Positions 1-61,600 of a stretch of DNA of 64,000 nucleotides are shown here, one piece after another (the stretch's first letter is position 1; every line of letters starts with the position of its first letter). A model generated the notes under the pieces. It did no database searches. It was not told where the DNA came from and saw nothing but the letters and a program-made list of their open reading frames with translations. The DNA comes from Squalus acanthias. Lineage: Eukaryota. The position numbers and the translations under genes are program-made. The DNA is taken from positions 62,496,001 through 62,560,000 of the forward strand of contig CM059430.1 in NCBI GenBank assembly GCA_030390025.1, given 5' to 3'.

Positions 1-610
1 AAAGTGCCGGACGGGCACAATGGGCCGCATGGTCTCCTTCCGTGCTGTAAGTTTCTTTGATTCTACGTGGCCATATGGGCAGACAGATGTTTGCAGGACA
101 TAAAACAATTGGTAGCTTCTTTCAACAGCTTCACCCGTTTCACATCAGGAGCGTCACCTGGACTGGAAGTCAGAATGCAGTAACGCGACACATAAATCAA
201 TGCACAGGTTTTGCAGTATTACTCGCCAAAAATGAGCACGAATCGTTGATTTGTGAGCGGTTGTATATAATATATTTTTATTGAATTCATGTTTGATGAT
301 AATTAGTTACAGCAAGGCTATTAGCGTATCATTGTAATCGAAAGAATAGAGATTTGTCTTCAGTTAAATAATAGATTTAACATTAAAGTACGTCAGGAAA
401 GTTAGATTTCTTAAAAACAACTAAAAGAAAATTTATCAAGTAATTGTACAGTAATAAATAGCTATCGACTGCTTTCTCTGATATATTACTGGAATGCTTT
501 ACCTCCTGGAGGAATGGTATGCCACGCTTTACAAACCCGTGGAGTTGATATGGCAGCGGAATGCGATTAGTACACACCTATAATGTGGTTTCTGCATCTA
601 AAATGTAATG

Positions 611-784
611 CTAATTGATTTTTGCTTCTGTGTACAAAGGCTCTGTAACTCCTCTTTGTTTTTTTGTCTGCAACTGGGCATACTCTGTGCTTCTTTCGTT
701 ATGTTTGCATTTCCCCGTTTTCTCTGAGCCAGTCAATGCTAGAGTCGTGTATGTCAGCTTGTCACGGCCTGTTCCTTTTTCGGT
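611..784 (-). CDS. Gene A terminal exon 7 (distal duplicate), ITIM plus ITSM
   Basis: tttcag|TEKGTGRDKLTYTTLALTGSEKTGKCKHNERSTEYAQLQTKKQRGVTEPLYTEAKIN*, matching ORF 611..796. Confidence 0.85.
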   Translation of the reverse strand, partial: TEKGTGRDKLTYTTLALTGSEKTGKCKHNERSTEYAQLQTKKQRGVTEPLYTEAKIN

Positions 785-991
785 CTGAAAAGCCAATGTT
801 TGGGAATATTGTTAATTGGGCTTTTTGCAAGTTCAGTGGACTGCTGCTCAAAGCAGATATCAGAAGGACGCACAAATAGCCTCAATACAACACACGGTTA
901 AATTCAGCACAAACATATTCCTTCTGCTATCGCATTAATGTTGATCTTACACTGGTGATCTATGTTTCTCTGATCTGTCACTTAGCCCTAC

Positions 992-1093
992 CTGATCGTA
1001 CACGGTACCCTGCTCTTCACGTTTACGTCTTGGAGTTTTCCTGGCTTTGCTCATTTCGAATGCAACATAATGCAGGATCTCAGCCGCTGCTCC
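992..1093 (-). CDS. Gene A cytoplasmic exon 6 (distal duplicate)
   Basis: catgcag|GAAAEILHYVAFEMSKARKTPRRKREEQGTVYDQ|gtaggg. It is 102 nt, and its ITIM is degenerate (LHYVAF). Confidence 0.8.
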
Positions 1094-1369
1094 CTGCATG
1101 GGTCACAAAGAAAATGTTTGGTTATGTCATCAGTACATTGTTTTCACCAGTTTATGTACCGCTGATCAAACATTGAGCAGATTGACCGGGGCTGGAGATC
1201 AAGTGCACAAACGGTAGTTCATATATATTTAGATAAGTGGGAATATTAAGGCACTGTGGTCAATATAACTAATATTTAAACCTGTCAATGTTCATGCTGC
1301 AACACAGTGTTACATAAATCTTCAAAGGTGTGGCAGCTTTAGAAGGTAAAGTTTTTTTTCAAATCCAAA

Positions 1370-3680: not shown

Positions 3681-3972
3681 GTTTATCATCAGTTAAATGA
3701 TAGATTTAACTTAAGCATGTGAGGAAGGTTACTGTTTCTTAAAAGCAGCTAAAAGAAAATTCATCAAATAATTGAACAGTAAGTAACGACTATAGACTGC
3801 ATTCTCTGATATATCACTGGAATGGGTTACCTCTCGGAGGAATGGTATCGCACGGTAAACATACGCGTGGAGTTGATATGGCAGCAGAATTCGATCAAAA
3901 CACAACAAAAAAGTGTTTTCTGCAGCAAACTTTATTGCTAATTGATTCTTACTTCTGTGTAGACAGCCTCTA

Positions 3973-4107
3973 TTACTCTTTGTTTTTTGTCTGCAGCTGG
4001 GCATACTCTGCGCTTCTTTCATTAATTTTGCATTTCCCCGTTTGCTCTGAGCCAGTCAATGCTAGAGTCGCGTATGTCAGCTTGTCACGGGCTGTCCCTT
4101 TTTCGGT
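3973..4107 (-). CDS. Gene A terminal exon 7 (proximal copy), ITIM plus ITSM-like motif, truncated tail
   Basis: ttacag|TEKGTARDKLTYATLALTGSEQTGKCKINERSAEYAQLQTKNKE*. A 4-nt deletion relative to the other copies removes the last YTE motif. Confidence 0.85.
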   Translation of the reverse strand, partial: TEKGTARDKLTYATLALTGSEQTGKCKINERSAEYAQLQTKNKE

Positions 4108-4309
4108 CTGTAAAGCCAATGTTTGGGAATATTGTTAATTGGCTTTTTGCAAATTCAGTGGACTGCTGCTGAAAGCAGACAGAAGGACGCACAAATAACC
4201 TCAATACAACACACGGTTAAATTCAGCATCAACATATTCCTTCTGCTATCGTATGAATGTTGATATACACCAATGATCTATGTTTTTCTGATCTGTTACT
4301 CATTCTTAC

Positions 4310-4411
4310 CTGAGCGTACGCGGTTCTCCCCTCTTCACGTTTAGGCTTTGGAGTTTTCCTGGCTCTGCTCAAATCTAATGCAGCATAATGCACGGTCTCA
4401 GCCGCTGCTCC
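4310..4411 (-). CDS. Gene A cytoplasmic exon 6 (proximal copy), ITIM plus second Tyr motif
   Basis: catgcag|GAAAETVHYAALDLSRARKTPKPKREEGRTAYAQ|gtaaga. It is 102 nt, phase 0-0. Confidence 0.85.
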
Positions 4412-4757
4412 CTGCATGGGACAGAAAGGAAATGTTTGCTTATGAGGCCAGTTCATTGCCTTCACCAGTTTACGTACCGCTGATCAAACATTGAACAGAT
4501 TAATCTGGGCTAGAGATCAAGTGCACAAACCATAATTCATATATATTTAGATAAGTGGGAATATTAAGACACTGCGATGACTATATCTAATATTTAAACC
4601 TGTCAATGTTCACTCTGCAATACAACGTTACAGAAATGTTTAAATTGAGAGGCAGCTTTAGACTGTAAAGTTCTTTTTTTTAAATCCAAAGAATAGATTA
4701 ATCTATAAACAGATATCACCGAGATTTTCAACGAAACAGGCAGTTTTCATTTCTGCC

Positions 4758-6270: not shown

Positions 6271-6646
6271 TGTGAGCGCTGTGAGTGCTCCTAACCCGAA
6301 AGGGTGAGCCCTGTCTGTTTTCTGAAAGCAGTAGTGTTCGCACTGTGAGCTCTGGAGCCTAGCTGTCACAATGAATGGATCATATTACTCATTGCAAAGA
6401 TCTTGATTACTCTCCAGCAGGCATGGTCAAATTACACATTTCAGACAAACTGTTGAGTGGGTCTTGTCCTCCAAGGGGACCGATCAGAAATCTGATCTTG
6501 TCCTCGAAGGGGACCAATCAGAAATTTCGTGTTGCAACCAGACACGACCGTAGACTTAAGCTATTCTGACGTGATTATGACATAATCTTTCCATTATAGC
6601 AACCTTGACATTTCAACCATCTACCAGGATGAATGAATGAACGTAC

Positions 6647-6690
6647 CGGCTCTTCACGGCGGTTCGGTCTCGTTACACATTCTTCTTTAA
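6647..6690 (-). CDS. Gene A exon 5, short cytoplasmic exon
   Basis: ttttcag|(V)KEECVTRPNRREEP|gtacgt. It is 44 nt, phase 1-0, and conserved with 50869-50912. Confidence 0.8.
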
Positions 6691-7348
6691 CTGAAAATGA
6701 ATGAAATTGAATGATATTGAAAGATTGAAATATTTACTCAGTTTCTGTGTCAATGATTGAAAAGACATTTCTAGAGTCAGAACAAAGCAGAAACTAATTT
6801 CCAATTTCGCATTGTGCCGATAGTGTTTGAAATCCCAGCCCTTGTAGCGATCAGCAATGGTGCATTTTTTGGATTTTTTTTCGAAAACTGAGGGAATCGT
6901 TTTGGACACTAAAGGAATCAAGGGATATGGGAATAGGGTGGGAAAGTGGTTTTGAGGCTCGAGGTGTCGTATAGCCTACATCTGATCCTATTTCTTATGT
7001 TCAGATGTGTACAACCATTCCCCGGCCAGAATCTCACACTCTTTCACTCAAACTAGTTGTGCTTCCACAACAGAATGTGTTGGAAAGTGATTGTGTGTCA
7101 GGGTACATGTCATTTATTATGCTGCAATGGGGGCATTTTTGTTGCAAACATCCAGATAATTATCTCCATTTTTATTACGATTCTCTGAGAATGTCTGCGT
7201 TTTAAAATGCATTTGGTACAATCGGCGCTCTCTGAAAACAGCTCACACGGTTTTCAACTTTAATTCCTAATCGAGTTCTCATTTCCCCGTGTTACCCTGA
7301 GACTGTCACGACAGTGAACTAAAATGAAGTGCTTACATTAGATCTTAC

Positions 7349-7462
7349 CGTCATTATTCTGCAGTCGGCACCACGTCCCAATGAAGATCATTAGCACTAG
7401 AAACGCCAATCCACCCACCGCACACGCAGAAGCCCAGAAGTAAAGTGAATTATCGACAATAC
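7349..7462 (-). CDS. Gene A exon 4, transmembrane exon
   Basis: cttgcag|GIVDNSLYFWASACAVGGLAFLVLMIFIGTWCRLQNND|gtaaga. It is 114 nt, phase 1-1, with no charged TM residue. Confidence 0.88.
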
Positions 7463-8482
7463 CTGCAAGATTAATAGGAACATTAAGTTTTGACGAGCGA
7501 TGGCTAAGAATAGGCCTCAAGATCGTTTATTGGTTGAACTATGGCGATGCTTTCAGTAACTCCGGGGTATAAAACGGGAATAAGAAAGTTTAAAATCAAA
7601 ATATTATTTATTTTAGATATAATATTTGAAGTAACTTCTTGATCGAATGGATGTAACATACTGGATTAATCTGCACATCGCACTACCGGTTTAGGGATCT
7701 CAAAACAATGTTTTTGGAGAGTTAGAATACGAGAGAAATCAATTTCCCATGACCAAAAGACTTGTTCTTGTTATTGAACGTTCTTATTTATTAACATATA
7801 GTTTGAGGAAATTGGAGGCAATTTTGTCACAAGCGTTTCTTCGATGCCTGCTCAAAATTCTGGATTGTAGCAAAATGTTAAAATTCCCCTTTCAATTATC
7901 CGAATTGTGTTCATTAAAGTAAGAATGTCATTGACTAGTAAAGGATATCAACGGGCGATGGTTCATTGTCTTGGGGACGGGAAGATTTGTTCACAATATG
8001 ATATATTGAACCGGCTGTACTGTCGCCTGTTTGCGGGCACAGTTTAAATGAGATATATGAGACAGATTCCAATTAAAGCTGCAGTGACATGAACGGGTGA
8101 GGGGTAAAAGCTGACCAGGGGTTAATTTCATATCTCTACAGTAGAATTAGCCGATAGGGGATAGAGGATCAAGAACTGCATTGGAAGAAGCCCGAGTGCA
8201 AACAACATGACTGCAGCTCCTGCTAACAGTCTTGGTTCAAGGAGACCAGGCTATGGTAAAGAAGAAAACAATCTTATCTTTCAAACAAAAGAATTTGAAA
8301 CGTTATTAATAATAAGTAGGTGAGGAAATATAACGGGTTAGAAAAGACAAACTCATGTTTATGATTGTAATACAATATATAAAAAAAAATTTGAAATCAA
8401 ATAAGCTTTGACTGAATATACTTGTGTGGAGAGCGATATAACCCGGTTTTACAATACATTGGGTTCAATTATATTATACATT

Positions 8483-9229
8483 GGCCCAGAAATTAAAGAC
8501 GGAGCCTTCCTGCGGGGGTAAGGCTTCCCCGCGATATCTCACTGCACGCCTGCATTTTCCTTCTGAGCTCACACGAACTTTATTATCAAGACTGCAGCTG
8601 TGCAGTGTGTGCGTATCCCACAGACGCAGTTAGTTCGTGCGAGCTGTGGGATCACGTGATTCAGTTAGAGCCAATGGCAGCACACCATCTTTTATTCATA
8701 GTTTTCACAGCAAGGGCTGTCAAAGCTATGAATCTATACCCCCCCAAAAAGAACAGCTAAACCTCAATTATTATTTTTTTTTTAAAAACATCACATTAAT
8801 AAAATAAGTATAGTTAAATAAATTAACCACTTTAAACAAAAAATTAAATTTTTGAAAAAATTTAAAATCTTTTTAAAAGTTATAAAAATAAACTTACCTT
8901 TCTTTAAAGTCTCTAAAAAAGATATACCTGTTGAAAAAAATTCAAAATTATACTTAATTAACTACTTACCTTGTTAAAAGAGGGTCTTACGCCTCCTTTC
9001 TTCATGTGCAAAATCTTCCATGCTAACCTGCGCGTTCAAAGCACTAAGTGCACTGCGTGGGCGCAGCCTGTAGCGTGCACGCGGTTCACTTAGGAACCGC
9101 CCCCTTTTGAAATCACCAAGTGCCGGTTTTCAGCGCATGCGCATTGCATGCAGAAAACCGGCAATTGGAGACAGAATACGCGAGAGTACACAGTGCGTAC
9201 TCTCGCGTACTGAGACTAATTTTTGGGCC
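8483..9229. mobile_element. Harbinger-like MITE in gene A intron
   Basis: TIRs GGCCCAGAAATT / AATTTTTGGGCC with an ATT TSD. It has GC-rich arms and an AT-rich core, and is an inverted near-copy of 38473-39216. Confidence 0.8.
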
Positions 9230-9380
9230 ATTATAACATGAATTTAATGCTTTGGTTGAAATTCCTCATGAGACTTCCGTGGACTGTCTTCATGATTATT
9301 AATAAGTGCAAACTGTACGATATATCTCTTTACGAATTTAACAGTGGCTGGCTCTCCTTTTTGGTCTGTTCGCTTCATAC

Positions 9381-9693
9381 CTTGGTTAGATTTAGAAACA
9401 GTATGGGTGACAAGAGCTGGAGTCTCGTGAGAGACATGAGAAACCAAACAGTTATAACGGGCGTCGCTCGGAACAGGCTGTGTCTCAACCAAAGAGCTGG
9501 AAACTTCAAACAGTCCCTCCGTGTTCTGCACTTTCCTGGTATGTATTCCTAATGCAGTTTCGATGCCATTTTTATACCAAGTGAGGGTGAAATTCTCCGG
9601 AAAAAAACGCAGCCGTTTCAAACACAAAAGACAGAGAAGCAGGCGAATTCCCTTCAGGTGTCCTGGAGACAATCTTCAGTGGGGTTGGGGCCG
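9381..9693 (-). pseudogene. Gene A exon 3, C1-set Ig domain, frameshifted
   Basis: Reads AAPTPLKIVS...FVFETAAF then FFPENFTLTWYKNG...GLFEVSSSL...YNCLVSHVS, with C1 motifs F.P..(I/F)...W.KNG and Y.C.V.H. The exon is 313 nt (+1, in the A7 run at 9601-9607). The B-strand Cys is TTT (Phe). Confidence 0.9.
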
Positions 9694-10211
9694 CTGCGGA
9701 ACAGAGATTGCACAAAGTCGAGTTACTGGGCACCATTGGGAAATTCAATACTATTCTGATTTACGTTCGGTACATTTTATTACAACAGCACCATTCGAAA
9801 GCGCAGCCTCCTGTCCATTTAATGTTACGCTCATCATCTACACACACCTGATCCATATCTCTCATAGACGCCCGCATCTGTACAAATTTACCCGCGCTAT
9901 CAATCCAAGCCTTTGAGTTACTTAGCAGACAAGCCGCAAAGATTTGCTAATCAATGTTAGCTTTTCAAAGTCCAAAGAATTAAGCAAGTAAACCTCGGGG
10001 CAAGTTTGCGCGCTGAGTCCCTCCGTATTAGGAACAGATAGACAGTGACCAGTAATCTGCACATTGTGGGTGGCAAAATGAGGGGCCCAGTCGGTATCGG
10101 ACAGATTTCACAGCCGAAGCATGACAATTGGTGACAGAAATGATAATCGGTTGAACCTCGGGAGGTTTCAGCAACACAGTTCCTCGGTACTGTTTAAAGT
10201 ATTGGGGATTC

Positions 10212-10860
10212 ACAGAATCAAAGAATCACAGAAATTTACGGCACGGGAGGAGGCCATTTGGCCCATCGTGTCTGTGTCGGCCTAAGAAGAACTATCCAAC
10301 CAAATCCCACTTTCCAGCTCTTGGTCCGTAGCCTTGTAGATTCTGGCACTTCAAGTGCATATCCAAGTACTTTTTAAATGTGATGAGGGTTTCTGCCTCT
10401 ACCACCCTTTCAGACAGTGAGTTCCAGACCTCCACTACCCTCTGGGTGAAAAGATTTCTCATCAACTCCCCTATAATCCTTCTACCCATTACTTTAAATA
10501 TATGCCTCCTGGATATTGACCTCTCTGCTAAAGAAATAGATCCTTCCTATCCACTCTAACCAGGCTCCTCATAATTTTATACAGCTCAATCAAGTCTCCC
10601 CTCAGCCTCCGCTGTTCCAAAGAAAACAACCCCAGTCTATCCAATCTTTCCAAATAGCTAAACTTCTCCAGACATGGCAACATCCTCGTAAATCTTCTCT
10701 GTACCCTCTCTGGTACAATCACATCTTTCCTGTAATGTGGTGAACAGAACTGTACGCAGTACTCCAGCTGTGGCCTAACTTGTGTTTTATACTGTTCAAG
10801 CATAACCTCCCTGTTCTAACATTCATTGACTCGGCTAATAAAGCAAAGTATCCCGGACGC
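10212..10860 (-). mobile_element. CR1 LINE 3' end
   Basis: Motifs VRPQLEYCVQF, ERVQRRFTRMLP and FTQRVVEVWNSL, plus a GATTCT-type tail. Confidence 0.92.
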
Positions 10861-11382
10861 CTTTTTAGGTTAGTGAGGTGACAACGTTGTGTGTTCCAAG
10901 CTCCAATTTGTTGAGTGAAGACGTTGATCAACAGTTAGTTTCACCCTGGCTTTCTAATCCCTGACGCTAACATTATGTGAGAATTAATTTCAGGAATGTT
11001 AAACCGCAGAGACAGCGATGGGGGCAGACAAAGCATCAGTATTGGACTAAGAGCCGTGTATATGTTGGGAAAGTTGTATTAACATAAATGATTTCCAGTC
11101 TTGCAATTTGTTCAGAAATTCCGCTATCAGACATCTGGTGTGTAAATTGTAGAGTTATAGTCTAACTGGTTAATATTGATACATTTTGCATTACTCTGCC
11201 TGTGACATTGAATATCTAATTAGCAGTTCTACACAGAGAACACGAACATACAACTTAACTTACCTAGAAATGTATTATTAGGCATGTGTATACTTCCAAA
11301 GGCGGTGCAATAAAACAATCACAAAACATCCCCGTTTGTTATGTTCGATATATTTACGACTGTGCCAATCTCCTGTGTTTCA

Positions 11383-11681
11383 CACTTACTATTAGATGTG
11401 ATCCGGTTCCATTTCCTCGAACTATTCCCCGATGGAACACTGCACAGTGATAGACTCCAGAATCTTGGAAAGTCGCGCTCAGCAACTGAAAGAACCCGCT
11501 CGCTTTCTGTTATCGGCGCTTGTGCGCAGGTATTCATTTTCACCCTGTTTCCAACAATACACTCTTACGTTGGAATTGTCCTGCGAGATGGGGAACAAGC
11601 AGTATAAGGTGATGTTCCCCCCTCTGGATACAGTCGCTTGTTTTGGCACTTGAGTCACTCTGAACGTATTGTTGTCCGCTG
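11383..11681 (-). pseudogene. Gene A exon 2, V-set Ig domain with J-like end, frameshifted
   Basis: Acceptor ttctgacag. Reads AADNNTFRVTQVPKQATVSRGGNITLYCLFP...WKQGENEYLRTSADNRKR, then after a ~22-nt deletion FFQLLSATFQDSGVYHCAVFHRGIVRGNGTGSHLIVS. The 3' donor is not canonical, so the end is approximate. Confidence 0.88.
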
Positions 11682-11844
11682 CTGTCAGAAAATATAGTCA
11701 AGTACAGGTAATTGGTATTGGAGATGACCTGGAGATAGAAGACAGAAAAAAACCTAGATAGAGATATTGCGGTTCACTAAATGAATGTGGAAACTACTTC
11801 GGATATATAAATTAAAGTAGCTGGGACAATGAATAAAGAGTTAC

Positions 11845-11899
11845 CTGTCTATATAATCTGCCGGAGTGTCAGGCACAGGAAAAGCAAAGCCGCCGACAT
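11845..11899 (-). pseudogene. Gene A exon 1, signal peptide with in-frame stop
   Basis: Translates as MSAALLFLCLTLRQII*T with a phase-1 donor G|gtaact. The TAG is at 11851-11849. It aligns to the gene B leader. Confidence 0.8.
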
Positions 11900-12060
11900 T
11901 CGGAGCAACTGATGAAACTCTGCAGTAACTGCGAGTTTGCAACTGTTAAAAAAGGTTTGCGGTTTATTTTCAATTAGATATGCCGCAATGACATTTGACA
12001 TCATGTAACTGCGGGTTCAGAAATTTGCCTTCGTTTGTGATGTGAGATTTTCTAACTTCT
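11900..12060 (-). promoter_or_regulatory. Candidate proximal promoter of gene A
   Basis: Blocks are conserved with the gene B upstream region (TCACAAACGAA, GATGTCAAA(T/C)GTCAT, AAATAAA..GCAAACC). It also has a RUNX-like AACCGCA. Confidence 0.5.
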
Positions 12061-12149
12061 GCACTTAATTCGACTGCTCGAATCACATGTGTCACAGACA
12101 GCAAAGAGTAAGGTAACATTTTTGATTTTCAAATGCAAAACTTACTAAC

Positions 12150-13135: not shown

Positions 13136-13384
13136 AGTTCATTTATTCTTGATTTCTGTTTCTTATAAACAGGTTTCTAAATTATTTCATTCGAGGCGTG
13201 CACAGTTCCAAGTTTCATATCTCAGAAACTCACCTTGGTACAGAGCTGCAGAATCTCTTACTCGCCATGGGAAATTTGATAATTTATAGATCTCCCATGC
13301 TGATGCTCAAAGTAAGTTTGAGGATACAATATTCAACAAGATTTCTGTTAGAGCTCCATCATTTGTAGCAATCTTGAATCCTTG

Positions 13385-16680: not shown

Positions 16681-16686
16681 GTGTTC

Positions 16687-18385: not shown

Positions 18386-18389
18386 TTTA

Positions 18390-22095: not shown

Positions 22096-22099
22096 ACAC

Positions 22100-39216: not shown

Positions 39217-39222
39217 ACTATC

Positions 39223-48035: not shown

Positions 48036-48346
48036 CTGCCCCAACTCCATTGAAAATTTCCCCTGGGACACCGAGAGCAATTCATCTGCGATTCTGACTC
48101 TTGTGTGTGAAACGGCTGAGTTTTACCCGGGCGATTTAACCCCCGTTTGGTATAAATATGGCGTCGAAACCGCAACTGGGATAAATTACACTAAACGGCA
48201 GAACACTGAGGGACTGTATGAAGTTGCCAGCCCTTTTGAAGAGACGCAGTCTGTGCCGAACGGGGCTGTTTACATCTGCTTGGTATCTCATGCCTCCCTT
48301 CGGACTCCCGCCATTGCCAGCTAAGCAGTTTTCAATTGCGACCCAG
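48036..48346 (+). pseudogene. Gene B exon 3, C1-set domain, frameshift and nonsense
   Basis: The exon is 311 nt (-1 near 48060-48075). It reads LTLVCETAEFYPGDLTPVWYKYG...YICLVSHASL with a premature TAA at 48322-48324, and donor CCAG|gtacga. Confidence 0.9.
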
Positions 48347-50068
48347 GTACGAAGGCATCAGGCCAAGAAGTGAGGTCAGCTACTGTTATATTCTGAAAGG
48401 GTATTTCATAGAATTTGTTTATATTGATAAACATACATTTATTTTGAAAATACGCCCAGGAAACAGCAAAGCAAAGAGAAAATTAATGTTTCAATGTAAA
48501 ATATTGTTGACCCGGACCCGGTGTGAAGCCGAAGTGTTATTATCGCCCTTCACCCAGTAACTGCCTATTAAACCTCATCAGCTTCCAATTGTTAAAACAA
48601 ATACGTGCTGGCTGGTTATCTCTTCTATGCAATTATTTTACATTTCTTGCTTATTACTAAACAATCAAACGTTTGCTTTTGTTAAACTGAATTCATTTTT
48701 TCCCATTTCCTGGTTCCTTACATGAGTTGCAGGACTAGAAGCGACTGTTCGTTTGTCTGGTCTCGAGCATCTCTGAATCCCGCCTCTGATGGGCGATTCA
48801 CGGTGAGGGCTTTTACACCGTCATTGTTACCAAACACCAGCTCATTTCCTGTGTTCCCAGGTCTCGCATTTCAGTTACGAAATCGCCTTCTACCCAAGGG
48901 TGCTGGATAAGCCGAGCAACCAAGAACACACACACTAAAGTTCCATTCTCTTCCCAAATTCCAGTACTCCCACACACGACAACATGATTAATCCGAGATC
49001 TTACCTTCTCCCATTCTGTTCAAGCTTACATCCCCCTCTAACTTTCATGTTCGAGATCCATTCCGTTGGTACCTCCTGGCCCCAGCTCTGCTGACCCCAC
49101 TTCCAGCCACACACATATTCTGTCAAACATTATTTTATATCATATTAATTAATTAATTTATAACAATTATAAACAACAGTTTATCACTTGTATCCGATTA
49201 TATTTCCTCACCTGTTTATTATTAATACTTATTCAATTTATTTCGTTTCAATTTTAAGATCGTTTTATTCCTTACCATTGCCTGCTGTCCTTGTACCAAG
49301 ACTGTTACCAGGAGCTGCAGTCACGCTGCTTGCACTTGGGCTTCTTCCAATGCAGTTCCTGATCCTCATCCCCCTATCGGCTAATTCTACTGTAGAGATC
49401 TGAAATTAACCCCTGGCCAGCTTTTACTCCTCACCCGTCCATGTCATAACGGGTTTAATTGGAATCTGTCTCATAAATCTCATTTAACCTGTGCCCGCAA
49501 CCTGGCGACAGTTCAACCGGTTCGATACGTCATATTGTGAAGAACTCTTTGCCACGAAGGGCAATAATCAATGAACCATTGCCCGTTGATAGCCCTTACT
49601 ATTCAGTGACCTTCTTACTGTAATAAACAAAGGTCAGGTAATTGAAAGGGGATTCTTAACCGATGGCTGCAACCCAGAATTTTGTGCCGGCAACGAAGAA
49701 ACTCTTGTGACGCATTTGCCTCCAATTTCCTCAAACTATATGTTAATAAATAAGAAACGTCAAGAATAAGTCTTTTGGTCATGGGAAATTGATCTCTCTC
49801 GTATTCTAACTCTCTTAAAACAGTGCTGTGAGATCCCGAAACCGGTAGTGCGTTGTGCAGATTAATCCCGAATGTCTGATCCATCCGACGAAGAAGTTAC
49901 TTCAAAGATGATATCTAAAAGAAATAACATTTTGTATTTAATCTTTCTTATTGCCGTTCTATACCGCCGAGTTACTGAAAGAAACATCATAGCTTAACTA
50001 ATAAACTATCTTGAGGCCTATTCTTAGCCAACGCCCGCCATAACTTAATGTTCCTATTAATCTTACAG

Positions 50069-50182
50069 GTAGTGGCGATAATTCACTTTATATCTTGCCT
50101 CCTGGGTGTGCGGTGGCTGGATTGGCGTTTCTGGTGCTAATGATTTTCATTGGGACGCGGTGCCTACTGCAGAAGAATGAAG
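50069..50182 (+). CDS. Gene B exon 4, transmembrane
   Basis: cttacag|GSGDNSLYILPPGCAVAGLAFLVLMIFIGTRCLLQKNE|gtaaga, 114 nt. Confidence 0.88.
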
Positions 50183-50868
50183 GTAAGATCAACTGTAAGC
50201 CCTTTATTTTATTACAAACCCTCCGGGTTAGTGACAGTCTCCGGTAACATTGGGGAAGCAGAACTCGATTAGGACTTAAAGATGAAAACAGTGTTATCTG
50301 TTTCAGGAGCACGGATTGTTCCAAATACATTTTAAAACACTGAATTGCTCAAAGAATCGTAATAAAAATTGAAATAATTATTTGGATGTTTGCAACAGAA
50401 GTGCCCCCTTTGCAGCATAATAAATGACATGTACCCTGACACACAATCACTTTCCAACTCATTCTGTTACGGATGCGCAACTAGTTTGAGTGAAAGCGTG
50501 TGAGGATCCGGCCGGGGATTGGTTGTATACATAAGAACATAATAAATAGGAGCAGTGTTAGGCCGTACTGCCCTTGAGCCTGCTCCGCCATGCTAATCCT
50601 CTACCGCAACACCATTTTCCCGCCCTATCCCCATATCGCCTGATCCCCTTAATGCCCACAAAGATTCCCTTAGTTTCCGAGAAATTTCAAAAAAATCCAC
50701 CATTGCTGATCGCTACAAGTGCTGGGATTTCAAACACTATCGGCACAATCCGGAATTGGAAATCATGTTCGGCTTTGGCTGACTCTAGAAATGTATTTGC
50801 AATCACTGACATTGAAACTGAGTAAATGTTGCAATCTTTCAATATCATTAAATTTCATTCGTTTCCAG

Positions 50869-50912
50869 GTACAGGAGAATGTGTAAGGGGACCGAACCGC
50901 CGTCAAGAGCTG
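50869..50912 (+). CDS. Gene B exon 5, short cytoplasmic exon
   Basis: tttccag|GTGECVRGPNRRQEL|gtacgt, 44 nt. Confidence 0.8.
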
Positions 50913-51164
50913 GTACGTCCATTCATCCATCCCGGTCGACGGTTGAAATGTCAAGAAAGATTGCTATAATGGAAAGATTATATCATAGTCACGTCAGAAC
51001 AGTTTACGTCTACTGACTTAAAGTATTTGTCCGGTCTTAGTGAGTCATTCAAATCATGGTTAGAAATATACTTGGCACCCGGAGCGTTACTGAAAAAATT
51101 GTTCAATGGGAGAGAAGAAACTGTTTGTTTCGTTGAAAAAGTTCCTGGGTAATAACTGCTTGTA

Positions 51165-52374
51165 GAATCATAAGAACATAAGAAATGGGGGCAGGAGTAG
51201 TCCATTCGGCCCTCCGAGCCTGCTCCGCTATTGAATAGGATTATGGCTGATCTTTTACTTCGAATCCACGTTCCCGCACTGTCCCTATTTCCCTTGGTTC
51301 CCTCAGTATCCAAAAGTCTATCCATGTCTGTCTGCAATATTCTCACCGACTGAGCATTCACAGCCATTTGGGATGTATAATTCCAAAGATTCACAACACT
51401 TTGAGTGAAGAAATTTCTCCTCATCTCAGTCCTAAATGACCGAACCCTTATTCTGAGACTTTGAACCCTAGCTCTAGACTCCCCAGCCGGGGGAAACAGC
51501 CTCCCAGCATCTACCCTGCCAATCCACTTCAAAATTTTAGACATTTCAATGAGATCACCTCTCCTTCTTCTAAACTGTAGCGAATAAAGGTCTAGTCTAC
51601 TAAATCTCTCCTCCTAGGACAAACCCCCATCCGAGGAATTAGCCTAGTGAACCTTCGTTACACTCCCTCTAAGGCAAATATATCCTTCCTCAGAAAAGGA
51701 ATACTCCAGGTGTGGTCTCACCAAGATCATACATAACTACAGTAAGACTTCTTTCCTCTTATACACCAATCCTTTCGTAATTAAGTCTAATATACCATTT
51801 GTTTTCCTAATTGCTTGCTATACCTGCATGTTGACTTTCTATGATTCGTGTATAAGGAGACCCTGCTCCCTCCGAACACCAACATTTTCCAATCTCTCAC
51901 TATTTAAAAAATATTCTGCTTTTCTATTTTTCCTACCAAAGTTGATAACTTCACATTTCTGCACGTTATATTCCATCTGCCATGTACTTGCCCACTCACT
52001 TAACCTGCCTACATCCCCATGTAGCCTCTTTGCGTCCTCCTCACAACATACTATCCCATGGAGATTTGTATCATAAGCAAACTTGAATAACTTACACTTG
52101 GTTCCCTTATCTAGGTCATTGATATAGATTGAAAATAGCTGAGGCCCAAACAATGATCCCTGAGATACCCCACCAGTTATAGCCTGCCACCCGAAAATTA
52201 CCCATTTATTCCTATTTTCTGTTTTCTGTCCGTTAACCAATCCTCAATCCACGCTAATATTTTACCTCCAATCCCATGAGCCCTAATTTTATGTAATATC
52301 GTCTTGTGTGGCACATTATCGAATTTTTTTTGTAAATTCAAATGCACTACATCCACCGCTTCCCCCTTATCTAC
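51165..52374 (-). mobile_element. CR1 3' half, cut by the ERV LTR
   Basis: RT and C-terminal motifs; it ends abruptly at the LTR TGTAAG at 52375. Confidence 0.9.
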
Positions 52375-52850
52375 TGTAAGATTTGGATCACAGGTCGCAC
52401 ACAGTTTACCCAAAGGGTCTTAGGTGCTGTAATGCATTTTATTAAGGAGTGAGAGTTTAAGTTAAGTACAACACGCAATCAAGATAGACATAGTAGAGAT
52501 ACGACCGTGACAAGCAGTTGGTATTGGTCCCGATCGGACAGACGGCTGGCGTGCGCGAACAGCTCTTCCCTTCCCTTCACCATCTGTGCTAAAAGCTCTT
52601 TAGATATCTCTTTTACTCTATTTGTAGGGGTGGGCCCAGTGTAGATTATTAAAGATACAGTCAACAACCTTTCTAGCACACAAACAGCAGACAGCTAGTC
52701 TAGAAACAAGGTCACCGCCACGGTGCAGAATGCTATAAATTCCACAGGGAACCAAGAACTAAGCAAATTCCGTCTATCCAGTTATTGTAACACCCGTCTG
52801 AAGAGAATTTGTTGTCTCAAGTTATTTTTTCCAATTCATGATTTCTTACA
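52375..52850 (-). mobile_element. 3' LTR of element 2
   Basis: Termini TGTAAGA...TCTTACA, preceded on the minus strand by PPT AAGGTGGGGAGT. Confidence 0.88.
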
Positions 52851-53279
52851 ACTCCCCACCTTGAGAAGGAAATATCCTATTGAGTTCGCACAACCCTCTT
52901 TTGACTAATTTAGCTCCTTCTAAGTTATCGGCCCGCTGATAACATTCGTGCCCAGCGATGCTAGCTGGCATTATAAGTTAGTTGCCACCACTCGTAGTCC
53001 GTAAATTTGCTTATTGCTTTCTCAACTTGGGCAATAGTTATTAGGGAGACTCAGAAATGAAGATTAACCCCTTCCTTACGGTCCATTCTTTTGAGGGGGA
53101 GGAGCAACTTCTGACCCTTCACACAGGTTCAGTTCACTGTTCCGGTGTTCCAATTCTGCCCCGCCTGGGGTATCCTCTTTTTCTTCTATCTTTCCTGATC
53201 TTACCCCGCCTGGGGTGTCCTTTACTTTGCTTCGGATCTTCTCTTTGAGTGTGCTCAATTAATTTCTTCATGCTGGTTA

Positions 53280-54450
53280 GTCATAAGCATGTGTACACAA
53301 TTGGCTGGTGCATCAAAGTCTTACTACACAGGTTACATATATCAAATACACTATCAATACAAGTTGGAGATCTACCAGCGCGTGTGAAATAATACGAACA
53401 TAGGGTGTGCTGATATATTAAGCCCAATATCCCACCAGTGCGAATCTTCCCCTATGTTGTCAATTTCAATATCTATTCTCGAGTTGTCCTGCTCCAAAAC
53501 ATAAAGATGCTTGAGGGAGGAGTTCAGTCACATCACAAGTTCACTGAAGCCGTTAGACAACAGGGGTGTCTTGCCCGAATTATGCAGCTCATACTTAAGT
53601 GTCTCATTTACTGTCAGTTTCAGTTGAGCATAGGTTTTGATACTGAGTAAAACGTGTTGGTTGATGGTTGTGGGTACATGTGGTGTGAAGCAGAAACTGG
53701 GGCTATTAATTGGACAGGTCCTGTTAGACCGATAAAGCATACTAGTTGCGGTAGTAGTGACACAGGAGGCACCACCAAAAGCACCTCATACTGGATTCGT
53801 ACTGGTTTTTCTCACACTCTGTTACCTACAAAACACAATTAGTACAGTCACAGTTAAATTCAGTCTTACAATAATTATAAGCGACACTAAAGTTTAACAT
53901 CGAGTCAACAAACAATGGACTTAAAAGATTCTCCAGATCTCTTTTACCCGTATCCATCTTGTGGATTATTCTTGCTAAGTATGATTTCTCCGTAGCCTCA
54001 ATTGTCCCAATCAAAATTCCGTGCAATTCTCCGCTTCAACTTCAATTTCAATCCCTCTAATAGGTACCAGTGTGTTTAACTCTATTTAGATTGTTTCACT
54101 GCTTAGATACTTTCTCGATGGAGTATGTGTCAGTGCTTTAAACGTTGTCGCACTCTCCTGAGCCACATTAACCATTTCATGTCATGCTGTTGTCAAGTAA
54201 CTGAGCATGTCTGAGACCCGTTCTTCAGTGCGGATTCACCATGCATTTCCGGATGGTAATTGCTTCATACATAACAAATCAATATCATGCCACGTGTGCC
54301 ATCCGATACAAGCCATTCTTGGGCTTTCAGCTGATCTTATCAAAAGATTGTCTGGAGATCTTTGCTCATCTTCCATCGCATGGTATCGGGTAGTGGCCAA
54401 ACTATCAAATTCAGTTTTCTTAAAAAGTTCATTATAGGCAGGGACACAGA
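53280..54450 (-). pseudogene. env remnant of element 2
   Basis: A basic site KLKRR, Cys-rich segments (CKTEFNCDCTNC; SCVTT..CPINSPSFCFTP), and HWWDIG followed by a hydrophobic TM-like stretch. Confidence 0.65.
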
Positions 54451-56074
54451 TGTCTCCAAGAGAAAGCTATCAATTTACTATTCTTAACTATACTTTCCTG
54501 ACTTTCACTGGAAAGTTAGGAAAATTCCCATTTGATAGTGTAATTTTCCTGTTTCAATCTTACATCTTAAGTGGGGCATGCCATTAATAATTATTAATAT
54601 CTCATTCATGAGCCCTGGAGGAATTTTACTGTCCAATACAATATTACGGATAGAAAACATAGATCAAAGTTTCTAGCTGAACGAATTAAAAAAAATCCAA
54701 CTGCCAGCGGAAAGGGTTAACTCCTTTGCAGCTTTTCAGAAGGCGGAGCAAATATTGTCAGACACAGACAATTGTGTCACTTCACGTAAATTTTAAAAAC
54801 TTTCCCGATCGAAAAAGACAGTTGGGTTTTCACAATTTAATAGGTTAGTTAACTTTAATAATCCCAATTTAATTTTATTAACTAAACACTATACAGAAAA
54901 GATAATATAAATCAAATTAAAACACAGTAAGTTACATAATATTTCTCTTTGTTCTTTCTTCAGATGCCTTTTCAAATGACAGTAAAAATATTGAATACAA
55001 CTGGAGAAAAATTAGTTTTCACACTTAAATTAAACAAATCAAACTGCTTTGGAAAGTTCACGACAGCAACCGCAACTCCAAGGTTAAATCTTAGTCTGAA
55101 ACTTAATCATTTGTTGAACAAACTTTTTGTTTTTCTCAGGTTTTCCACACCAGCTTAACTTAAATTTTAGTTCAAAGTTTTATTTTTCAATTCTGGGTGC
55201 ACAATCTTATTCGCACATTCTTAAAACTTCCAAAATTCAAGACAAGACTACAACGTGTTAAATGGCTTTTAGCACATAGAAGTGGGTGGAGATAAAACAC
55301 ACATAACAGACACTTTCTTTTAAAGACAGACCTTCAGACGAAAGGAATACTGTTACTTCCCAAACACTCACAGATGCTTTGCAAAAGGATATCAAAGTTC
55401 ACACTGAAAACAAATAAAAACCAATAGAACAGCAGAAAAGAAATATGATCTCCCCTTTTCTCTTTTATTCCATCCTAATTATTTTATCCTTTCACCCATA
55501 AACCAACTTTCAGTTTCTAATGTTTTCTACTGCATCTCATTCTTAACTGATTACTGCCACTGGGAATCTGGGAGAGTAGGGTGGGTGTCTCCAGAACCAT
55601 CGGGGTACACACGGGGGTGACTGAATTGAGTTTGTGATAGTCAATAGTCATCCGATAATCACCCGGTTCTCTAACCGACCAAACTAGGGAGCTGGTCGTG
55701 AAAGTGCCTTTGCAAACAACACCCTGCTTTAGCTCCAAGGGAAGGGATCCTTGTATAGTTGTCTGGATTGAATTGTCAAAGTCCTATAAAACTTGGGGCT
55801 CACCCTTTTTAGGATCGGGGTGGGGATCGTGAATGATGGTGGTGGAGCAACCGGAGTTGAATCACAATAATTGTTGACGGGATCCAGAATCAACAGTTGG
55901 GACTACCGGTCTCCCACCACCATTATATCGGAGAGGGGAAATCATCTCTCCCTGAGAGACCTGCAGGAGTCATAGGGGAGGTGGAAGGTCTGCTGTTTGC
56001 TCTGGTTGTTGATGCAACGCGACAACCTGTCGGGCTCCCTGGCCGTTGGTCAAAGCTGCTTCCATTCTTTCCAG

Positions 56075-57637
56075 TCATCGTTCTAGTGAGTCGAGGCCTG
56101 CCTGTCTGGGGGGGTTGTGACCATTGTTGCATTGACGGGCATAGTGGCCTAGACGTTGGCAGAGATTGCAGCACACTGAAGTACGTTTCCCTGGATTTCT
56201 AGATGGCCCTGACTTTTGCTTAGGCAGCGAGCCTTCAACAGCCACTACGGCAAACTTGGCAGGTATCACAGGGATATTGGCACGGGTCTGATCCCAAGCA
56301 GTCCTGACACGGGCGAGTATTTGGTCCCACTCGATGTTTTTAGAGACATAAATGCGCAGCGCATTACGGACCAGCGGTTGGAGGTCGTTCAAAAAAAGGG
56401 TTCTGAAGCCCGAGTCGTTGAAGTAATTCCTTCCACCCCACCTGTTGCACTGTAAGATGCCATGAAGTTTATGCACAAAGGCATTCGGGCTTTCGGTAGG
56501 GCCCTCTTTAGTGCAAGCTAGATGCTGGTGAAAATCAATGCTCTCTTCCCCTAGAGTTTGGCATAGTTCTAACTCAATCTCATCTATTGTGCTCCACCCC
56601 CACCCCACTCAGGATATCCAGGTCCATTTCTTGTTTTAATCCAGAGGAACATGCTTCCAGGGGTGCCTCTTTGAGGCCGTCCCCTTCTAGTTCTGGTTGG
56701 TTGATTATAAAAATCCTCCAGCATTGCCTGACGTCGAGGGAGCTGATGTCCATGTCCACCACCCCCAGGTTAGCCTTTAGCTGCACCACTTCAACCGCGG
56801 AAAGGGACGGATGTGTGGTTGTGGTAATGGTTTCTGCCTCTCTACTAATGGTGATCGAGGAGGTTGCCTCGCCTTTCAGGTCTCGGTCAGCCTGGCGCCT
56901 GGTCTCGCATGGTGCCTTAGCTCGGGTGACCACACATACTGGTATGCTCCCCCCCGCCTCGCCATCCTTGTATCGTGGTGGCGGAGCTAAGGGAACAGAG
57001 GGAGCAGAGGGAGTACTGTCCCCAATTATGTTGTCACAGCAAAGGCCAGGATCTTTTGGGTTTGTCTTGAAGACAGCAGCCATTACTGCCCGTTGTTGAC
57101 CAATTTTTGCCTGCAGCTGTTGGATTTTTTCAAAGCACGGGCCATGGTCTGCTTGGGGGGAGGCAGTGGATTGGCGCCAGTTTAATTCCCTTAACGCTCC
57201 ACTTGCATACTCTAGCTCCACACTCAATCTGGTGTTTTCTGCCTGTAGTTCAATATTCTGCTCAAGTATTTGAGCTAGTTTCTTTTATGTACATGACATT
57301 TTGTCATGAATCTTTTGCTCCCAGCGCGACTGGTTGCGGAGGGCAGAAAGCTTCTCACGCCAATCACTTCTTTCTCTCTGCATTTGGCCGACTTAACCTT
57401 TTAACTCTTTAATCTCGCTGTTTAACTTGGCAGCGCACAAGTGTGCCCCGTAGGCTAACCTGTCACGGCCTCTCTTATTTTAAGTTTGTTTTTCTGAACA
57501 ACCTCAGAGAGTTTATCAAGGATGTAGTCATAGTCCCCGTTACCATCTTCTAAGATTTTTAGGAGGTTCGCTGCTGTGGCGGTGCCGACTTTTTCTGTCA
57601 GGCTGTTCCCGATGGTATGCCAACGCCATTGTACCAC
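56075..57637 (-). pseudogene. gag remnant of element 2
   Basis: ORFs 57455..57637, 56580..57227 and 56075..56608 carry a PSAP/PPRY proline-rich segment, an MHR-like segment and a CCHC knuckle. Confidence 0.8.
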
Positions 57638-57775
57638 TGGTTTTAACTTTACCCAACTCTCTCCCTATCCCTTATTTCAGGGAATTCTTCTACTTCGTCT
57701 CAAGTGATGATCACGTGCGGTCGACCAAGTCCCTCTGGTCTCTACAACCAGAACATTACAACTCCCAACTCTCTG

Positions 57776-57793
57776 ATTCCACTTCTGACACCA
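57776..57793 (-). promoter_or_regulatory. Primer binding site, tRNA-Leu
   Basis: TGGTGTCAGAAGTGGAAT lies next to the LTR end and is 1 mismatch from the complement of the tRNA-Leu(CAA) 3' end. Confidence 0.85.
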
Positions 57794-57794
57794 T

Positions 57795-58150
57795 TGTAAC
57801 ATTTGGATCACAGGACAGGAACAGATTACCAAAGGGTCTTAGGAGTTGTAAGGCATTTTATTAAGAAGCGGCAGTTTAAGTTAAGTACAACACGCAATCA
57901 AGATTGACATAGTAGACATACGATCGTGACAAGCAGCTGGTATCGGTCCCGATCAGTCAGACTGCTGGCGTGTGCGAACAGCTCTTCCCTTCCCTTCATC
58001 GTCTGTGCTAAACGCTCTTTAAATATCTCTTTTACTTTCGTTTTAGGGGTGGGCACAGGGTAGATTATCAAAGATACAATCAAGAACCTTTCAAGCACAC
58101 ATACAGCAGACAGCTAGTCTGGAAACAAGGTCACCGCCATGGTGCAGAAT
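57795..58150 (-). mobile_element. 5' LTR of element 2 (U3 end deleted)
   Basis: It matches 52375-52730 colinearly. Confidence 0.88.
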
Positions 58151-58154
58151 TTTA

Positions 58155-58243
58155 TATCGAAGACTTTTTTGTGTTTCCTTCGGATGTCTGCATTGAGCAG
58201 CAGTCCAGAGAACTTGCAAAGCTAAAAATTAGCAATATTCCCA
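58155..58243 (+). repeat. Remnant of a second cytoplasmic-exon module (intron 6 fragment) in gene B
   Basis: GAGCAGCAGTCCAGAGAACTTGCAAA is shared with 60231-60256. Confidence 0.75.
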
Positions 58244-59330
58244 TGCGCCTGCTGCCCTTATCCTTCTCGGTGGAAGAGGTCGCGAGATTGGGAGGTGCTG
58301 TCGAACAAGCCTTGGCGAGTTGCTGCAGTGCATCTTGTAGAAGGTACAGACTGCAGCCACGGTACGCCGGTGGTGGAGGGAGTGAATGTTTAAGGTGGTG
58401 GATAGGGTGTCAATCAAGCGGGCTGATTTGTCCTGGATGGTGTCGAGCTTCTTGAGTCTCGTTGGAGCTGCACTCATCCAGGCAAGTGGAAAGTAATCCA
58501 TCACACTCCTTACTTGTGCTTTGTAGATGGTGGAAAGGCTTTGGGGAGTCAGGAGGTGAGACACTCGCCGCAGAATACCTACCCTCTGACTTACTCTTGT
58601 TGCCACAGTATTTATGTGGCTTGTCCAGTTAAGTTTCTGGACAATAGTGACCCACAGGATGTTGATGGTGGGGGCTTCGGCGATGGTAATGCCGTTGAAT
58701 ATCAAGGGGCGCTGGGTAGACTCTCGCTTTTTGGAGATAGTCATTGCCTGGCACTTATGTGTCGTGAATATTACCTGCCACTTATAAGCCCAAGCCTGGA
58801 CGGCCTCCAGGTCTTGTTGCATGCGGGCATGGACTGCTTCATTATCTGAGGAATTGTGAATGGCACTGAACACTGTGCAGTCATCAGCGAACATCCCCAT
58901 TTCTGACCTTATGATGGAGGGAAGTTCATTGATGAAGCAGCTGAAGATGGTTCGGCCTAAGGACACTGCCTTGAGGAACTCCTTCAGTAATGTCCTGGGG
59001 CTGGGATGTTTGACCCCAACCACCACAACCATCTTCCTTTGTGCTAGGTATGACTCCAGCCAGTGGAGAGGTTTCCCCCCGATTCCCATTGACTTCAGTT
59101 TTACTAGGGCTCCTTGATGCCACACTGGGTCATCAGCTGAATTGATATCAAAGGCAGTCACTTGCACCTCACCTCGGGAATTCAGCTCCATTGTCCATGT
59201 TTGGACCAAGGCTGTAATGAGGTCTGGAGCCGAGTGGTCCTGGTGAAACCCAAACTGACCATCAGTGAGCAGGTCATTGGTGAGTAAGTGCTGCTTGATA
59301 GCACTGTCGATGACACCTTCCACAACTTTC
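58243..59330 (-). mobile_element. LINE RT fragment (second family)
   Basis: ORF 58229..59323 contains FADDC and KAQVRSVMDY. Confidence 0.92.
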
Positions 59331-59339
59331 AGAAGTACG

Positions 59340-59715
59340 ATTTATTTACTAATGCTAATTTCTTTAAGGTCCTCATTCTATCTAGAACCTTGGTTCCCCA
59401 CTATTTTGTCTTGTTCCGTAAAGACAGATAAAGAATATTTGTTTAGTATCTGCTAATTTCTCTATTTTCCTGACTGAAACTGTGCCCGACACTACAACTA
59501 CTGTTAGGGGCCGGTACACTACTCCCACCAATGTTTTCTTTCCCTTGTTGTTTCAAAGCTCCAACAAAGTGATTCTACATCTTGATTTTCCGAGCTAAGA
59601 CCCTTTCTCTCTATTGTCTTTATCCCATCCTTTATTATCAGGGCTTCCGGCCCTCCTTTTCCATTTTGCCTACCTCTTCTAAAAGTTAAGTACCCTGCCA
59701 TATTTAGTTCTTGGT
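59340..59715 (-). mobile_element. CR1 fragment, inverted counterpart of part of 1370-3250
   Basis: It matches the reverse complement of ~1370-1600 joined to ~3150-3270. Confidence 0.75.
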
Positions 59716-59985
59716 TTTGGAAAAAAACGTTATGTTCTAAAGCTGCCGCTGATTTAAACAGTTCTGTAACACTGTGTTGCAGGGTGAACATTAACAGGTT
59801 TGAATATAAGTTACATGGCCCACAGTACCTTAACATTCGCACTTATCTAAATATGTATGAACTGTGGTTTATGCACTTGATCTTTAGCCTCGGTCAATCC
59901 GTTAAATGTTTGCTCAGCGGTACGTAAACTGGTGAAGGCAATGAACTAGCCACATAACCAAACTCTTTCTTTCTGACCCATGCAG

Positions 59986-60087
59986 GAAGCAGCGGCTGAG
60001 ACCGTGCATTATGCTGCATTAGATTTAAACAGAAGCCGGAAAACTCCAAGACGTGAAATTGAAGCGGAGAGAACCGTTTACGCTCAC
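59986..60087 (+). CDS. Gene B exon 6, ITIM exon with mutated donor
   Basis: catgcag|EAAAETVHYAALDLNRSRKTPRREIEAERTVYAH|ggagga, where GT is lost. Read-through stops at TAA 60130-60132. Confidence 0.82.
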
Positions 60088-60295
60088 GGAGGATTGAGTA
60101 ACAGATCAGAGAAACATCGATCGTCAGTGTAACATCAACATTCATGCGATAGCCGGGGGCATGTGTTTGCCCTGACTTTGACCGTGTGTTGTATCGAAGA
60201 GTATTTGTGCGTCCTTCTAATGCCTGCTTTGAGCAGCAGTCCAGAGAACTTGCAAAACGACCAATTAACAATATTTCCAAACGTTGGCTTCACAG

Positions 60296-60469
60296 ACCGA
60301 ACAAGGGACAGCCCGTGACAAACTGACGTACGCAGCTATAGCATTGACTGGCTCAGAGAAAACGGGGAAATATAAAAATAATGAACGAAGCTCAGAGTAT
60401 GCACAGCTGAAGACCAAAAAACAAAAAGGAGTAAAAGCGGCTGTCTACACAGAAGCAAGAATCAATTAG
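60296..60469 (+). CDS. Gene B terminal exon 7, ITIM plus ITSM-like motif
   Basis: tcacag|TEQGTARDKLTYAAIALTGSEKTGKYKNNERSSEYAQLKTKKQKGVKAAVYTEARIN*. Confidence 0.87.
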   Translation, partial: TEQGTARDKLTYAAIALTGSEKTGKYKNNERSSEYAQLKTKKQKGVKAAVYTEARIN

Positions 60470-61600
60470 TAATACATTTTAGCTGCAGAAGTCACTTTTT
60501 TGGTGTTTACTGATCGCTGCCATATCAACTCCACGCGTATGTCTACCATGCGATCCCATCCCTTTGAGAGGGAACGCTAGTGATATATCAGAGAATGCCG
60601 TTTATAGTTATTACTTACTCTTCAATTATTTGATGTATTTTATTTCAGCCACTTTTAAGAACAAAGTAACTTTCCTGACATACTTTAATGTTAAATTTGG
60701 ATTATTTACCTGCTTGCAAATATCTACGCTTTCGATTAAAATAATACGCTAATAGCCTCGCTTTATACAATTATCATCATATATGAATTCAATGAAAATA
60801 GATTATATACGGTCTCTTACAATTCAACTATTCGTGTTCTATTTAGCGAGTTAAACTAAAAGAAAACCTGTGAGCTGATTTACGTGTGGCGTCACTGCAC
60901 TCTGGCTTCCAGTTCAGGTGACGCTCCTGATGTGAAACGGCTAAAGCTCCAGTCGAGGGACTTGTCCATCAACCTACGGAAAGTAGCTGCCAGTTGTTTT
61001 AGGTTCTGCAAACATCGGTTTATCCATGTGCAACGTAGAATCATAGAATCTTACAGCACAGAGGAAGGCCATGCTGCCCATTGTGCCCATGCCGCCACTT
61101 TGAAAGATTAGTCCCAATTAGTCCCACTCTCGCGATCCTTCTGCAAAGTCCTGCAATTTTCTCCTTTTCAAGTAAATATCAAATTCCGTTTTGAAGGTTC
61201 CCATGTATTCTGCTTGCAGGACTCACTATCTAAAGGTGTCAATTTGTCATTTAAAAAATTCATGCAAACGATATCTGCTGCATTTCCTTGATCTATTCTA
61301 ACTGCTGTTTCTCAAAGAATTCTGGAAGGGACGTCAAGCACGAATTGCCTTTTCGAAATCCGTGCTGATTTGCCTTAATTAGCTCAAGTTTCTACAAGAA
61401 CTTCGCAGTTTTATCCCGAATGACAGGGGCCGAAAAATTGAATTAATTTTGCAACTGTTTACCTCTCATTATGTTTCAGTTCACGTCAAATTCCATTTTC
61501 TCACCTAATAACAATCCGTTGCTTCGAAATGAAGATAAAGTGGTGTAGATTATTTTGACAATTAATTACCCAAAACAGTGGTACATCTATGTACATGCAT

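Follow-up and report, generated by a model that had tools for sequence, protein, structure and literature searches.

This study provided evidence that the two receptor genes lying head-to-head in a 64,000-nt stretch of Squalus acanthias DNA (called the window here; its contig is C6) are, with high probability, pseudogenes of two distant subfamilies of one tandem array that face each other through an inversion of ~115 kb; this judgement covers the joint explanation, including the paired-receptor function of the array. The inversion behind the head-to-head pair is what is new in the window: the initial annotation was right in reading a cluster and wrong in reading a duplication. As an event, the inversion is ordinary cluster turnover, but its breakpoints are resolved to single bases and it changes how the window should be read. 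More important than the inversion is the family, as a large cluster with intact paired members offers direct targets for ligand, signalling, and phylogenetic tests.

Genes A and B share one layout, namely a leader, one VJ exon that ends with a GxG strand, one C1 exon, a transmembrane (TM) exon, a 44-nt exon, and two tyrosine exons (Table 1), with V-set and C1-set domains recognised by Pfam. Gene A runs on the minus strand from its leader at 11,899 to its tail at 611 and gene B on the plus strand from 47,012 to 60,469, pointing away from each other as annotated at the outset. Gene A is a pseudogene by its leader stop, V deletion, and C1 frameshift, and gene B by the loss of a donor and two C1 lesions, a frameshift and a separate stop; the V exon of B is open, and its predicted model is a confident V-set fold (pLDDT 89.7). 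The private insertions and lesions proposed for each arm were found in both genes. Homopolymer error as a source of the frameshifts was dropped, because each gene has independent stops, deletions, or splice losses.

Table 1. Features of the window (coordinates in window nucleotides; TM, transmembrane; cyt1, first cytoplasmic exon).
Feature	Position	Strand	Remarks and basis
Gene A leader exon	11845-11899	-	In-frame stop
Gene A single-exon VJ domain	11384-11681	-	Frameshifting 23-nt deletion
Gene A C1-set exon	9381-9693	-	+1 frameshift, first cysteine lost; Pfam and exon model
Gene A TM exon	7349-7462	-	Uncharged (inhibitory type)
Gene A first cytoplasmic exon	6647-6690	-	44 nt
Gene A tyrosine exon alpha, copy 1	4310-4411	-	VHYAAL, TAYAQ
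Gene A tyrosine exon beta, copy 1	3973-4107	-	LTYATL, AEYAQL; frameshift past second tyrosine
Gene A tyrosine exon alpha, copy 2	992-1093	-	Motifs degenerate
Gene A tyrosine exon beta, copy 2	611-784	-	
LINE fragment (reverse transcriptase)	22103-22870	+	Cut by inversion
Left breakpoint of ~115-kb inversion	22870-22877	.	7-nt filler
Gene B leader exon	47012-47072	+	Donor weakened
Gene B single-exon VJ domain	47228-47548	+	Frame open, GxG J-like strand, no RSS; Pfam, exon model
Gene B C1-set exon	48036-48346	+	1-nt deletion near 48070, separate stop near 48322; Pfam
Gene B TM exon	50069-50182	+	Uncharged
Gene B first cytoplasmic exon	50869-50912	+	44 nt
Gene B tyrosine exon alpha	59986-60087	+	VHYAAL; splice donor lost
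Gene B tyrosine exon beta	60296-60469	+	LTYAAI, SEYAQL; frame open
LTR-bounded insertion in tail intron of B	52375-58156	.	363-bp repeats 88% alike; common to sister units
Mirror block 1	1-1600 / 59460-61101	inverted	78.8%, self-BLAST
Mirror block 2	6550-8429 / 49107-51013	inverted	82.3%, self-BLAST
Mirror block 3	9292-9730 / 47999-48434	inverted	72.5%, self-BLAST
Mirror block 4	11268-11701 / 47208-47664	inverted	66.2%, self-BLAST
Mirror block 5	11831-12173 / 46726-47086	inverted	65.4%, self-BLAST
Mirror block 6	17160-17280 / 41171-41290	inverted	86.0%, self-BLAST
Mirror block 7	17562-17951 / 40746-41151	inverted	75.9%, self-BLAST
Repeat tail, TM-cyt1 intron of A	6880-7001	.	Self-BLAST and unit comparison
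Repeat tail, TM-cyt1 intron of B	50529-50660	.	Unit comparison
Upstream blocks of repeat unit, left arm	17160-17951	.	Broken up by a repeat; comparison
Upstream blocks of repeat unit, right arm	40746-41290	.	Comparison

Both tyrosine exons are doubled in gene A (353-1370 and 3682-4691, 85% identical), with the better alpha exon in copy 1 and the intact beta exon in copy 2, and the doubling is common to A', a copy of A 140 kb away. A third A-type gene (L053, C6:62,760,001-62,770,000), with open V and C1 exons, a neutral TM, and a tyrosine exon, is apparently intact and appears to be a living relative of gene A. The LTR-bounded element in gene B carries long open frames at 56075-57284 without a Pfam match, and its LTRs predate the ~95% unit duplications. 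In the C1-TM intron, a 114-nt exon-like stretch lies opposite to the receptor strand (49276-49389, minus; 8141-8254, plus), with good AG/GT sites in phase 1-1; it is open in B and several sisters, has in-frame indels in two, a stop in A, and a frameshift in others, is present in 12 of 60 other loci (all A/B subfamilies), and has no RNA cover. A sense-strand relic TM in the same intron was rejected, as it did not match the family TM profile.

Self-BLAST of the window joined genes A and B through seven colinear reverse-complement blocks outside transposon matches, totalling ~5.2 kb at 65-86% identity, with E values of 1e-10 to 0, far beyond chance. The four mirror pairs given as examples in the initial annotation are real (83.1, 85.8, 90.8, and 79.2% of aligned columns), that at 121-330 lying just 3' of copy 2 of the beta exon of gene A, and the colinear diagonal is not confined to interspersed repeats. 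The mirror does not span the window as had been stated, since its blocks cover ~5.2 kb of the 22.9-kb left arm and each recurs 9-17 times in the 464 kb around the window, once per repeat unit; between the arms, no block of at least 200 bp reaches 88% identity. A CR1 tail had also been described as shared by the two arms. A ~130-bp repeat tail, presumably CR1, does lie at the matching spot of both TM-cyt1 introns, but it is not specific to A and B, being present in 8/8 neutral-TM units tested and in 0/7 units with an arginine in the TM (Arg-TM). The mirrored block at 1-1600 was dropped as a transposon candidate because it contains tyrosine exons.

Several repeats accompany these blocks. An inverted pair of 282-bp LINE fragments (92%, ~315 bp apart) occupies 16684-17561, and a ~750-bp non-coding element with inverted ends lies at 8482-9235, 38467-39217, and 61653-62223, representing independent insertions across numerous units and present at very high copy number in public DNA. 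A 30-bp minisatellite of 26 copies at 36900-37675, with several frames open, is common to sister cassettes, and a second LTR-type element lies in fragments at 27100-30500, with RNase H (28246-28698) and integrase zinc-binding (28735-29010) matches in Pfam.

The two arms had been attributed to one old inverted segmental duplication, in which a single event copied the gene unit upside-down beside itself and the arms then decayed. Exons, introns, and upstream blocks do line up in an inverted colinear chain, but its identity is uneven, from 65% to 87%, every block recurs in each unit, and the arms are not mutually closest. The left arm has its counterpart at window 138-164 kb in the same orientation (22,032 of 22,870 bp, 94.8%), and the right arm matches both 213-256 kb (39,624 of 41,130 bp, 94.9%) and the left flank (37,592 bp, 94.2%) in reverse. 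Exon identity between A and B is 68% for V, 72% for C1, and 87% for TM, compared with 97-99% between A and A' and 90-97% between B and its sisters. In the trees, A falls in one subfamily with A', its same-strand sister, and B in another, its sisters being four other units; a clade of A and B was rejected by AU tests for V (p 5e-115, 33 rows), C1 (3e-43, 32 rows), and the TM region (2e-10, 29 rows), the rows coming from 14 modelled units and from 14-19 of 59 other loci picked as nearest relatives and outgroups. These tests refute the duplication, short of assuming that both arms were later converted wholesale, and the orientation is accounted for by the mapped inversion. With closer copies elsewhere, this explanation is barely credible and is the least probable of the alternatives weighed here.

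The 464 kb contain no N. Twelve of the 16 units in this region are on the minus strand, and the four plus-strand units lie together between window 22,871 and 137,862. At 22,870, a LINE breaks off and the reverse of sequence present at 255,876 follows; the remaining half of the LINE is inverted at window 137,854 (C6:62,633,854), and the LINE is whole in three uninverted paralogous copies. The two reciprocal junctions rejoin into uninverted paralogous sequence, as a simple inversion predicts. One break cost about 10 bp and the second 187 bp. A 7-nt filler at the left junction matches the reverse of the other breakpoint's flank, and the right junction carries a 7-nt tandem duplication. As the breaks lack long shared homology, they were probably rejoined by end-joining with templated filler.

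A duplicative inverted insertion, in which the cassette at window 164-256 kb served as template for the 115-kb block and the copy went in upside-down, agrees with the 94-95% mirror between the block and that cassette, but the junctions are complementary halves of one LINE, the target would need a cut at the exact paralogous base, and the left flank cassette is equally close (94.2%); we consider it very unlikely. The richness of the array in 94-97% duplicates could also invite a mis-join during assembly. Against such an error, which we rate slightly lower still, neither junction has a gap, both lie outside shared homology and carry small deletions, filler, and the 7-nt duplication, and six more head-to-head pairs occur among the 39 V loci of the 1.6-Mb subcluster at C6:61.1-62.8 Mb. 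Public contigs (three DNA runs, one putative RNA run) compared with 9,000-24,200 were repeat-swamped and too short; among the listed pieces, starts were at least 22,929, and none bridged 22,870.

Based on this evidence, we favour the inversion, and the history of the locus would have begun with an ancient split of the A and B ectodomain lineages (V 68% identical). TM-tail cassettes may then have been swapped among lineages, as the conflict between trees suggests, giving A and B a shared, younger inhibitory 3' half (83-87%). Multi-gene cassettes, now ~95% identical, would next have been duplicated in tandem with A already broken, the B-type genes of one cassette would have been inverted, and B would have accumulated its own lesions; apart from the swap, these steps are read directly from the comparisons above. 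Since A and A' share the 23-nt V deletion, the inactivation of A preceded both the ~5% duplication and the flip.

The reading of the window as part of a birth-and-death immune receptor cluster was confirmed, with broken and intact units side by side. The V exon of B as query gave 131 genome matches, 126 of them on C6 at 57.5-76.9 Mb, and C1 exons were found beside V matches with a full-length ray homolog as query. Because 150 of 199 candidates were scored and ~7 matches were second pieces, the resulting figure of roughly 115-120 V exons is a floor; one V match on contig C17 (weak alignment, 30%) and one on C2 (not recovered) were left uncounted. The intact members expected nearby were located by searching the 464 kb, 26 kb to the left and 17 kb to the right of the window.

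The 16 units of this region, each with the mirrored blocks, comprise three intact inhibitory genes, three to five intact short-tailed Arg-TM genes, and eight pseudogenes. Among the 14 that were modelled, the three intact inhibitory genes (375 aa) lie at window coordinates -26, +81, and +230 kb; five have an open frame of 274-280 aa with a TM arginine, a tail ended by a stop after ten residues, and tyrosine exons that have decayed, two of these five having a non-canonical splice site; and six are broken. The two further units lack the 5' end. RSS-like sites were found at none of the 16 V exons. A sample of 59 further loci, amounting to about half of the cluster and covering 10 kb at each, had an open V in 57 cases and an open C1 in 55 (L069 doubtful), with one C1 match in 56 loci and two in three. 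A TM was found in 46 of the 59, with arginine in 14, and in 13 there was no TM within 10 kb; tyrosine exons occurred in 20 of the 32 neutral-TM loci.

The array lies 2.4 Mb from CBFB on a contig also carrying GPI. A single divergent VJ and C1 pair (L115-L116, C6:57.546-57.552 Mb) sits beyond CBFB, separated from the first subcluster by 3.6 Mb, and could be a basal member. Pristis, Heptranchias, Heterodontus, and Scyliorhinus have full-length homologs of matching layout, to which automatic annotation has given five mutually conflicting names. Contigs from three putative RNA runs of one study contained leader-V (two runs) and V-C1 (two runs) joints at the predicted introns; these joints derive from paralogs, contain the base missing from B, and do not extend to any TM or tail exon.

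Like ectodomains occur on charged-TM short-tail forms and on neutral-TM ITIM-tail forms, which is the pattern of a paired-receptor cluster, and three opposite-type pairs have V exons 99.1-99.7% identical. In the tree of the TM region, all ten local Arg-type TMs form one starred clade whatever the ectodomain, A and B being neutral. As the repeat tail likewise marks the neutral cassette, we infer that tail cassettes moved between ectodomain lineages. Traced over 38 of the 59 loci, the Arg label required five changes on the TM tree, where one origin was rejected, and 13 on the V tree, which is no fewer than with shuffled labels. Within the helix, the TM arginine occupies the outer edge, and an aspartate is also present in most local Arg-types; one Arg-TM gene (L089) still has an intact tyrosine exon. 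One Arg-type unit (L046; L045/L046 region C6:62689047-62689730, window ~193,050-193,720), in which an extra V exon lies in tandem, has a V 99.7% identical to that of an inhibitory gene 37 kb away, a likeness that points to recent conversion or crossover.

Concerning selection, dN/dS was 1.78 for B-clade V (codon bootstrap 1.12-3.15), which includes B's own V, and 0.96 for C1, the estimates being pairwise and not independent. A-clade V showed no replacement excess (0.74, 0.43-1.34, 6 rows); on these values, only one clade shows a sign of selection. Judging from motifs and from known families of such receptors, the intact members are likely paired leukocyte surface receptors. The uncharged-TM forms, with four to five tail tyrosines, would recruit SHP-type phosphatases, and the Arg-TM forms, with a 10-residue tail, would signal via an ITAM adaptor; with a near-identical V, a pathogen attaching to the inhibitory form would also be met by a response from the activating form.

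Among known families, SIRP (SIRPalpha/SIRPbeta1) likewise has an unsplit VJ exon followed by C1-set and TM, clustered inhibitory and activating forms, and a tail with two pairs of ITIM/ITSM-like tyrosines. Some homologs are auto-named SIRPalpha-like by NCBI, the top two ESM Atlas feature matches are SIRPalpha clusters (0.96), and PDB 2wng was the third match of protein query P0001, among antibody chains. SIRP has two C1 domains and an activating type with a mid-helix lysine, and lies beside NSFL1C in amniotes. The array, in contrast, has one C1, as do the homolog proteins, more than 100 genes, and an outer-edge arginine in its activating type, and it lies near CBFB, with p47/NSFL1C-type SEP matches only at two loci on C8 and C11. 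A CD47 search gave no match, as did its control queries, and an opioid-peptide marker search was uninformative.

An unsplit VJ exon is also found in UrIg, UrIg2, NCR3 (NKp30), PRARP, and tetrapod VJ-C1 genes, with C1 in UrIg; NCR3 is not known to have a C1. UrIg2 was the second-best PDB match of the C1 profile and the best of protein query P0004. One report describes UrIg as secreted with three C1 domains and UrIg2 as having nine, within the MHC and Ig/TCR complex (PMC12227049), whereas the array genes combine one C1 with a TM and a signalling tail and form a large cluster; C6 gave no proteasome match. A preprint presents the NITRs of ray-finned fish as VJ receptors that do not rearrange, lie in clusters, and include ITIM and charged-TM forms (bioRxiv 10.1101/2021.06.11.448072). 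The array shares these features, but its second domain is C1-set (Pfam) rather than I-type, and holostean NITRs flank runx1, whereas Runt matches here are on C5, C9, and C2339, with none on C6. Rearranging Ig/TCR differ in that the array V exons have no RSS and are accompanied by a TM and a tyrosine tail. PDB sequence and fold searches with the V domain returned generic V-set matches (VNAR, CD79b, Fv; Z 13-14.4, tied) that did not assign it to a family, and protein query P0007 had no PDB match at E 1e-18. Judged on its sequences, the family is SIRP-like by architecture, yet is placed in none of SIRP, NITR, UrIg, or the rearranging receptors.

Literature searches found no description of the family, which publications beyond their reach could already list; a term search in the elephant-shark supplement (PMC3964593) returned no SIRP, CD47, or ITIM. 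The origin of SIRP is stated as unknown in PMC9652883, and unsplit VJ-C1 genes are being looked for as remnants of the precursor of antigen receptors (PMC10751288, PMC12227049). Tentatively, and with slightly less than even confidence, we suggest that the array is a complex, so far undescribed and common to elasmobranchs, comprising well over 100 VJ-C1 receptors that are fixed in the germline and constructed like a single antigen-receptor chain, with activating partners re-invented at least four times. It would be a shark counterpart of KIR/LILR, and either the oldest SIRP branch or an independent antigen-receptor-precursor offshoot, at a CBFB-region locus not tied to such genes before.

Shark NK and myeloid receptors are poorly known. 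Birth and death, inversions, V-domain homogenisation, and repeated activating origins characterise the rearranging paired-receptor clusters KIR, LILR, Ly49, and Siglec-5/14. The array is alike in its birth and death, its inversions, the homogenisation of V between opposite types, and the repeated origin of activating forms; its ectodomain is different, and the comparison carries no claim of homology.
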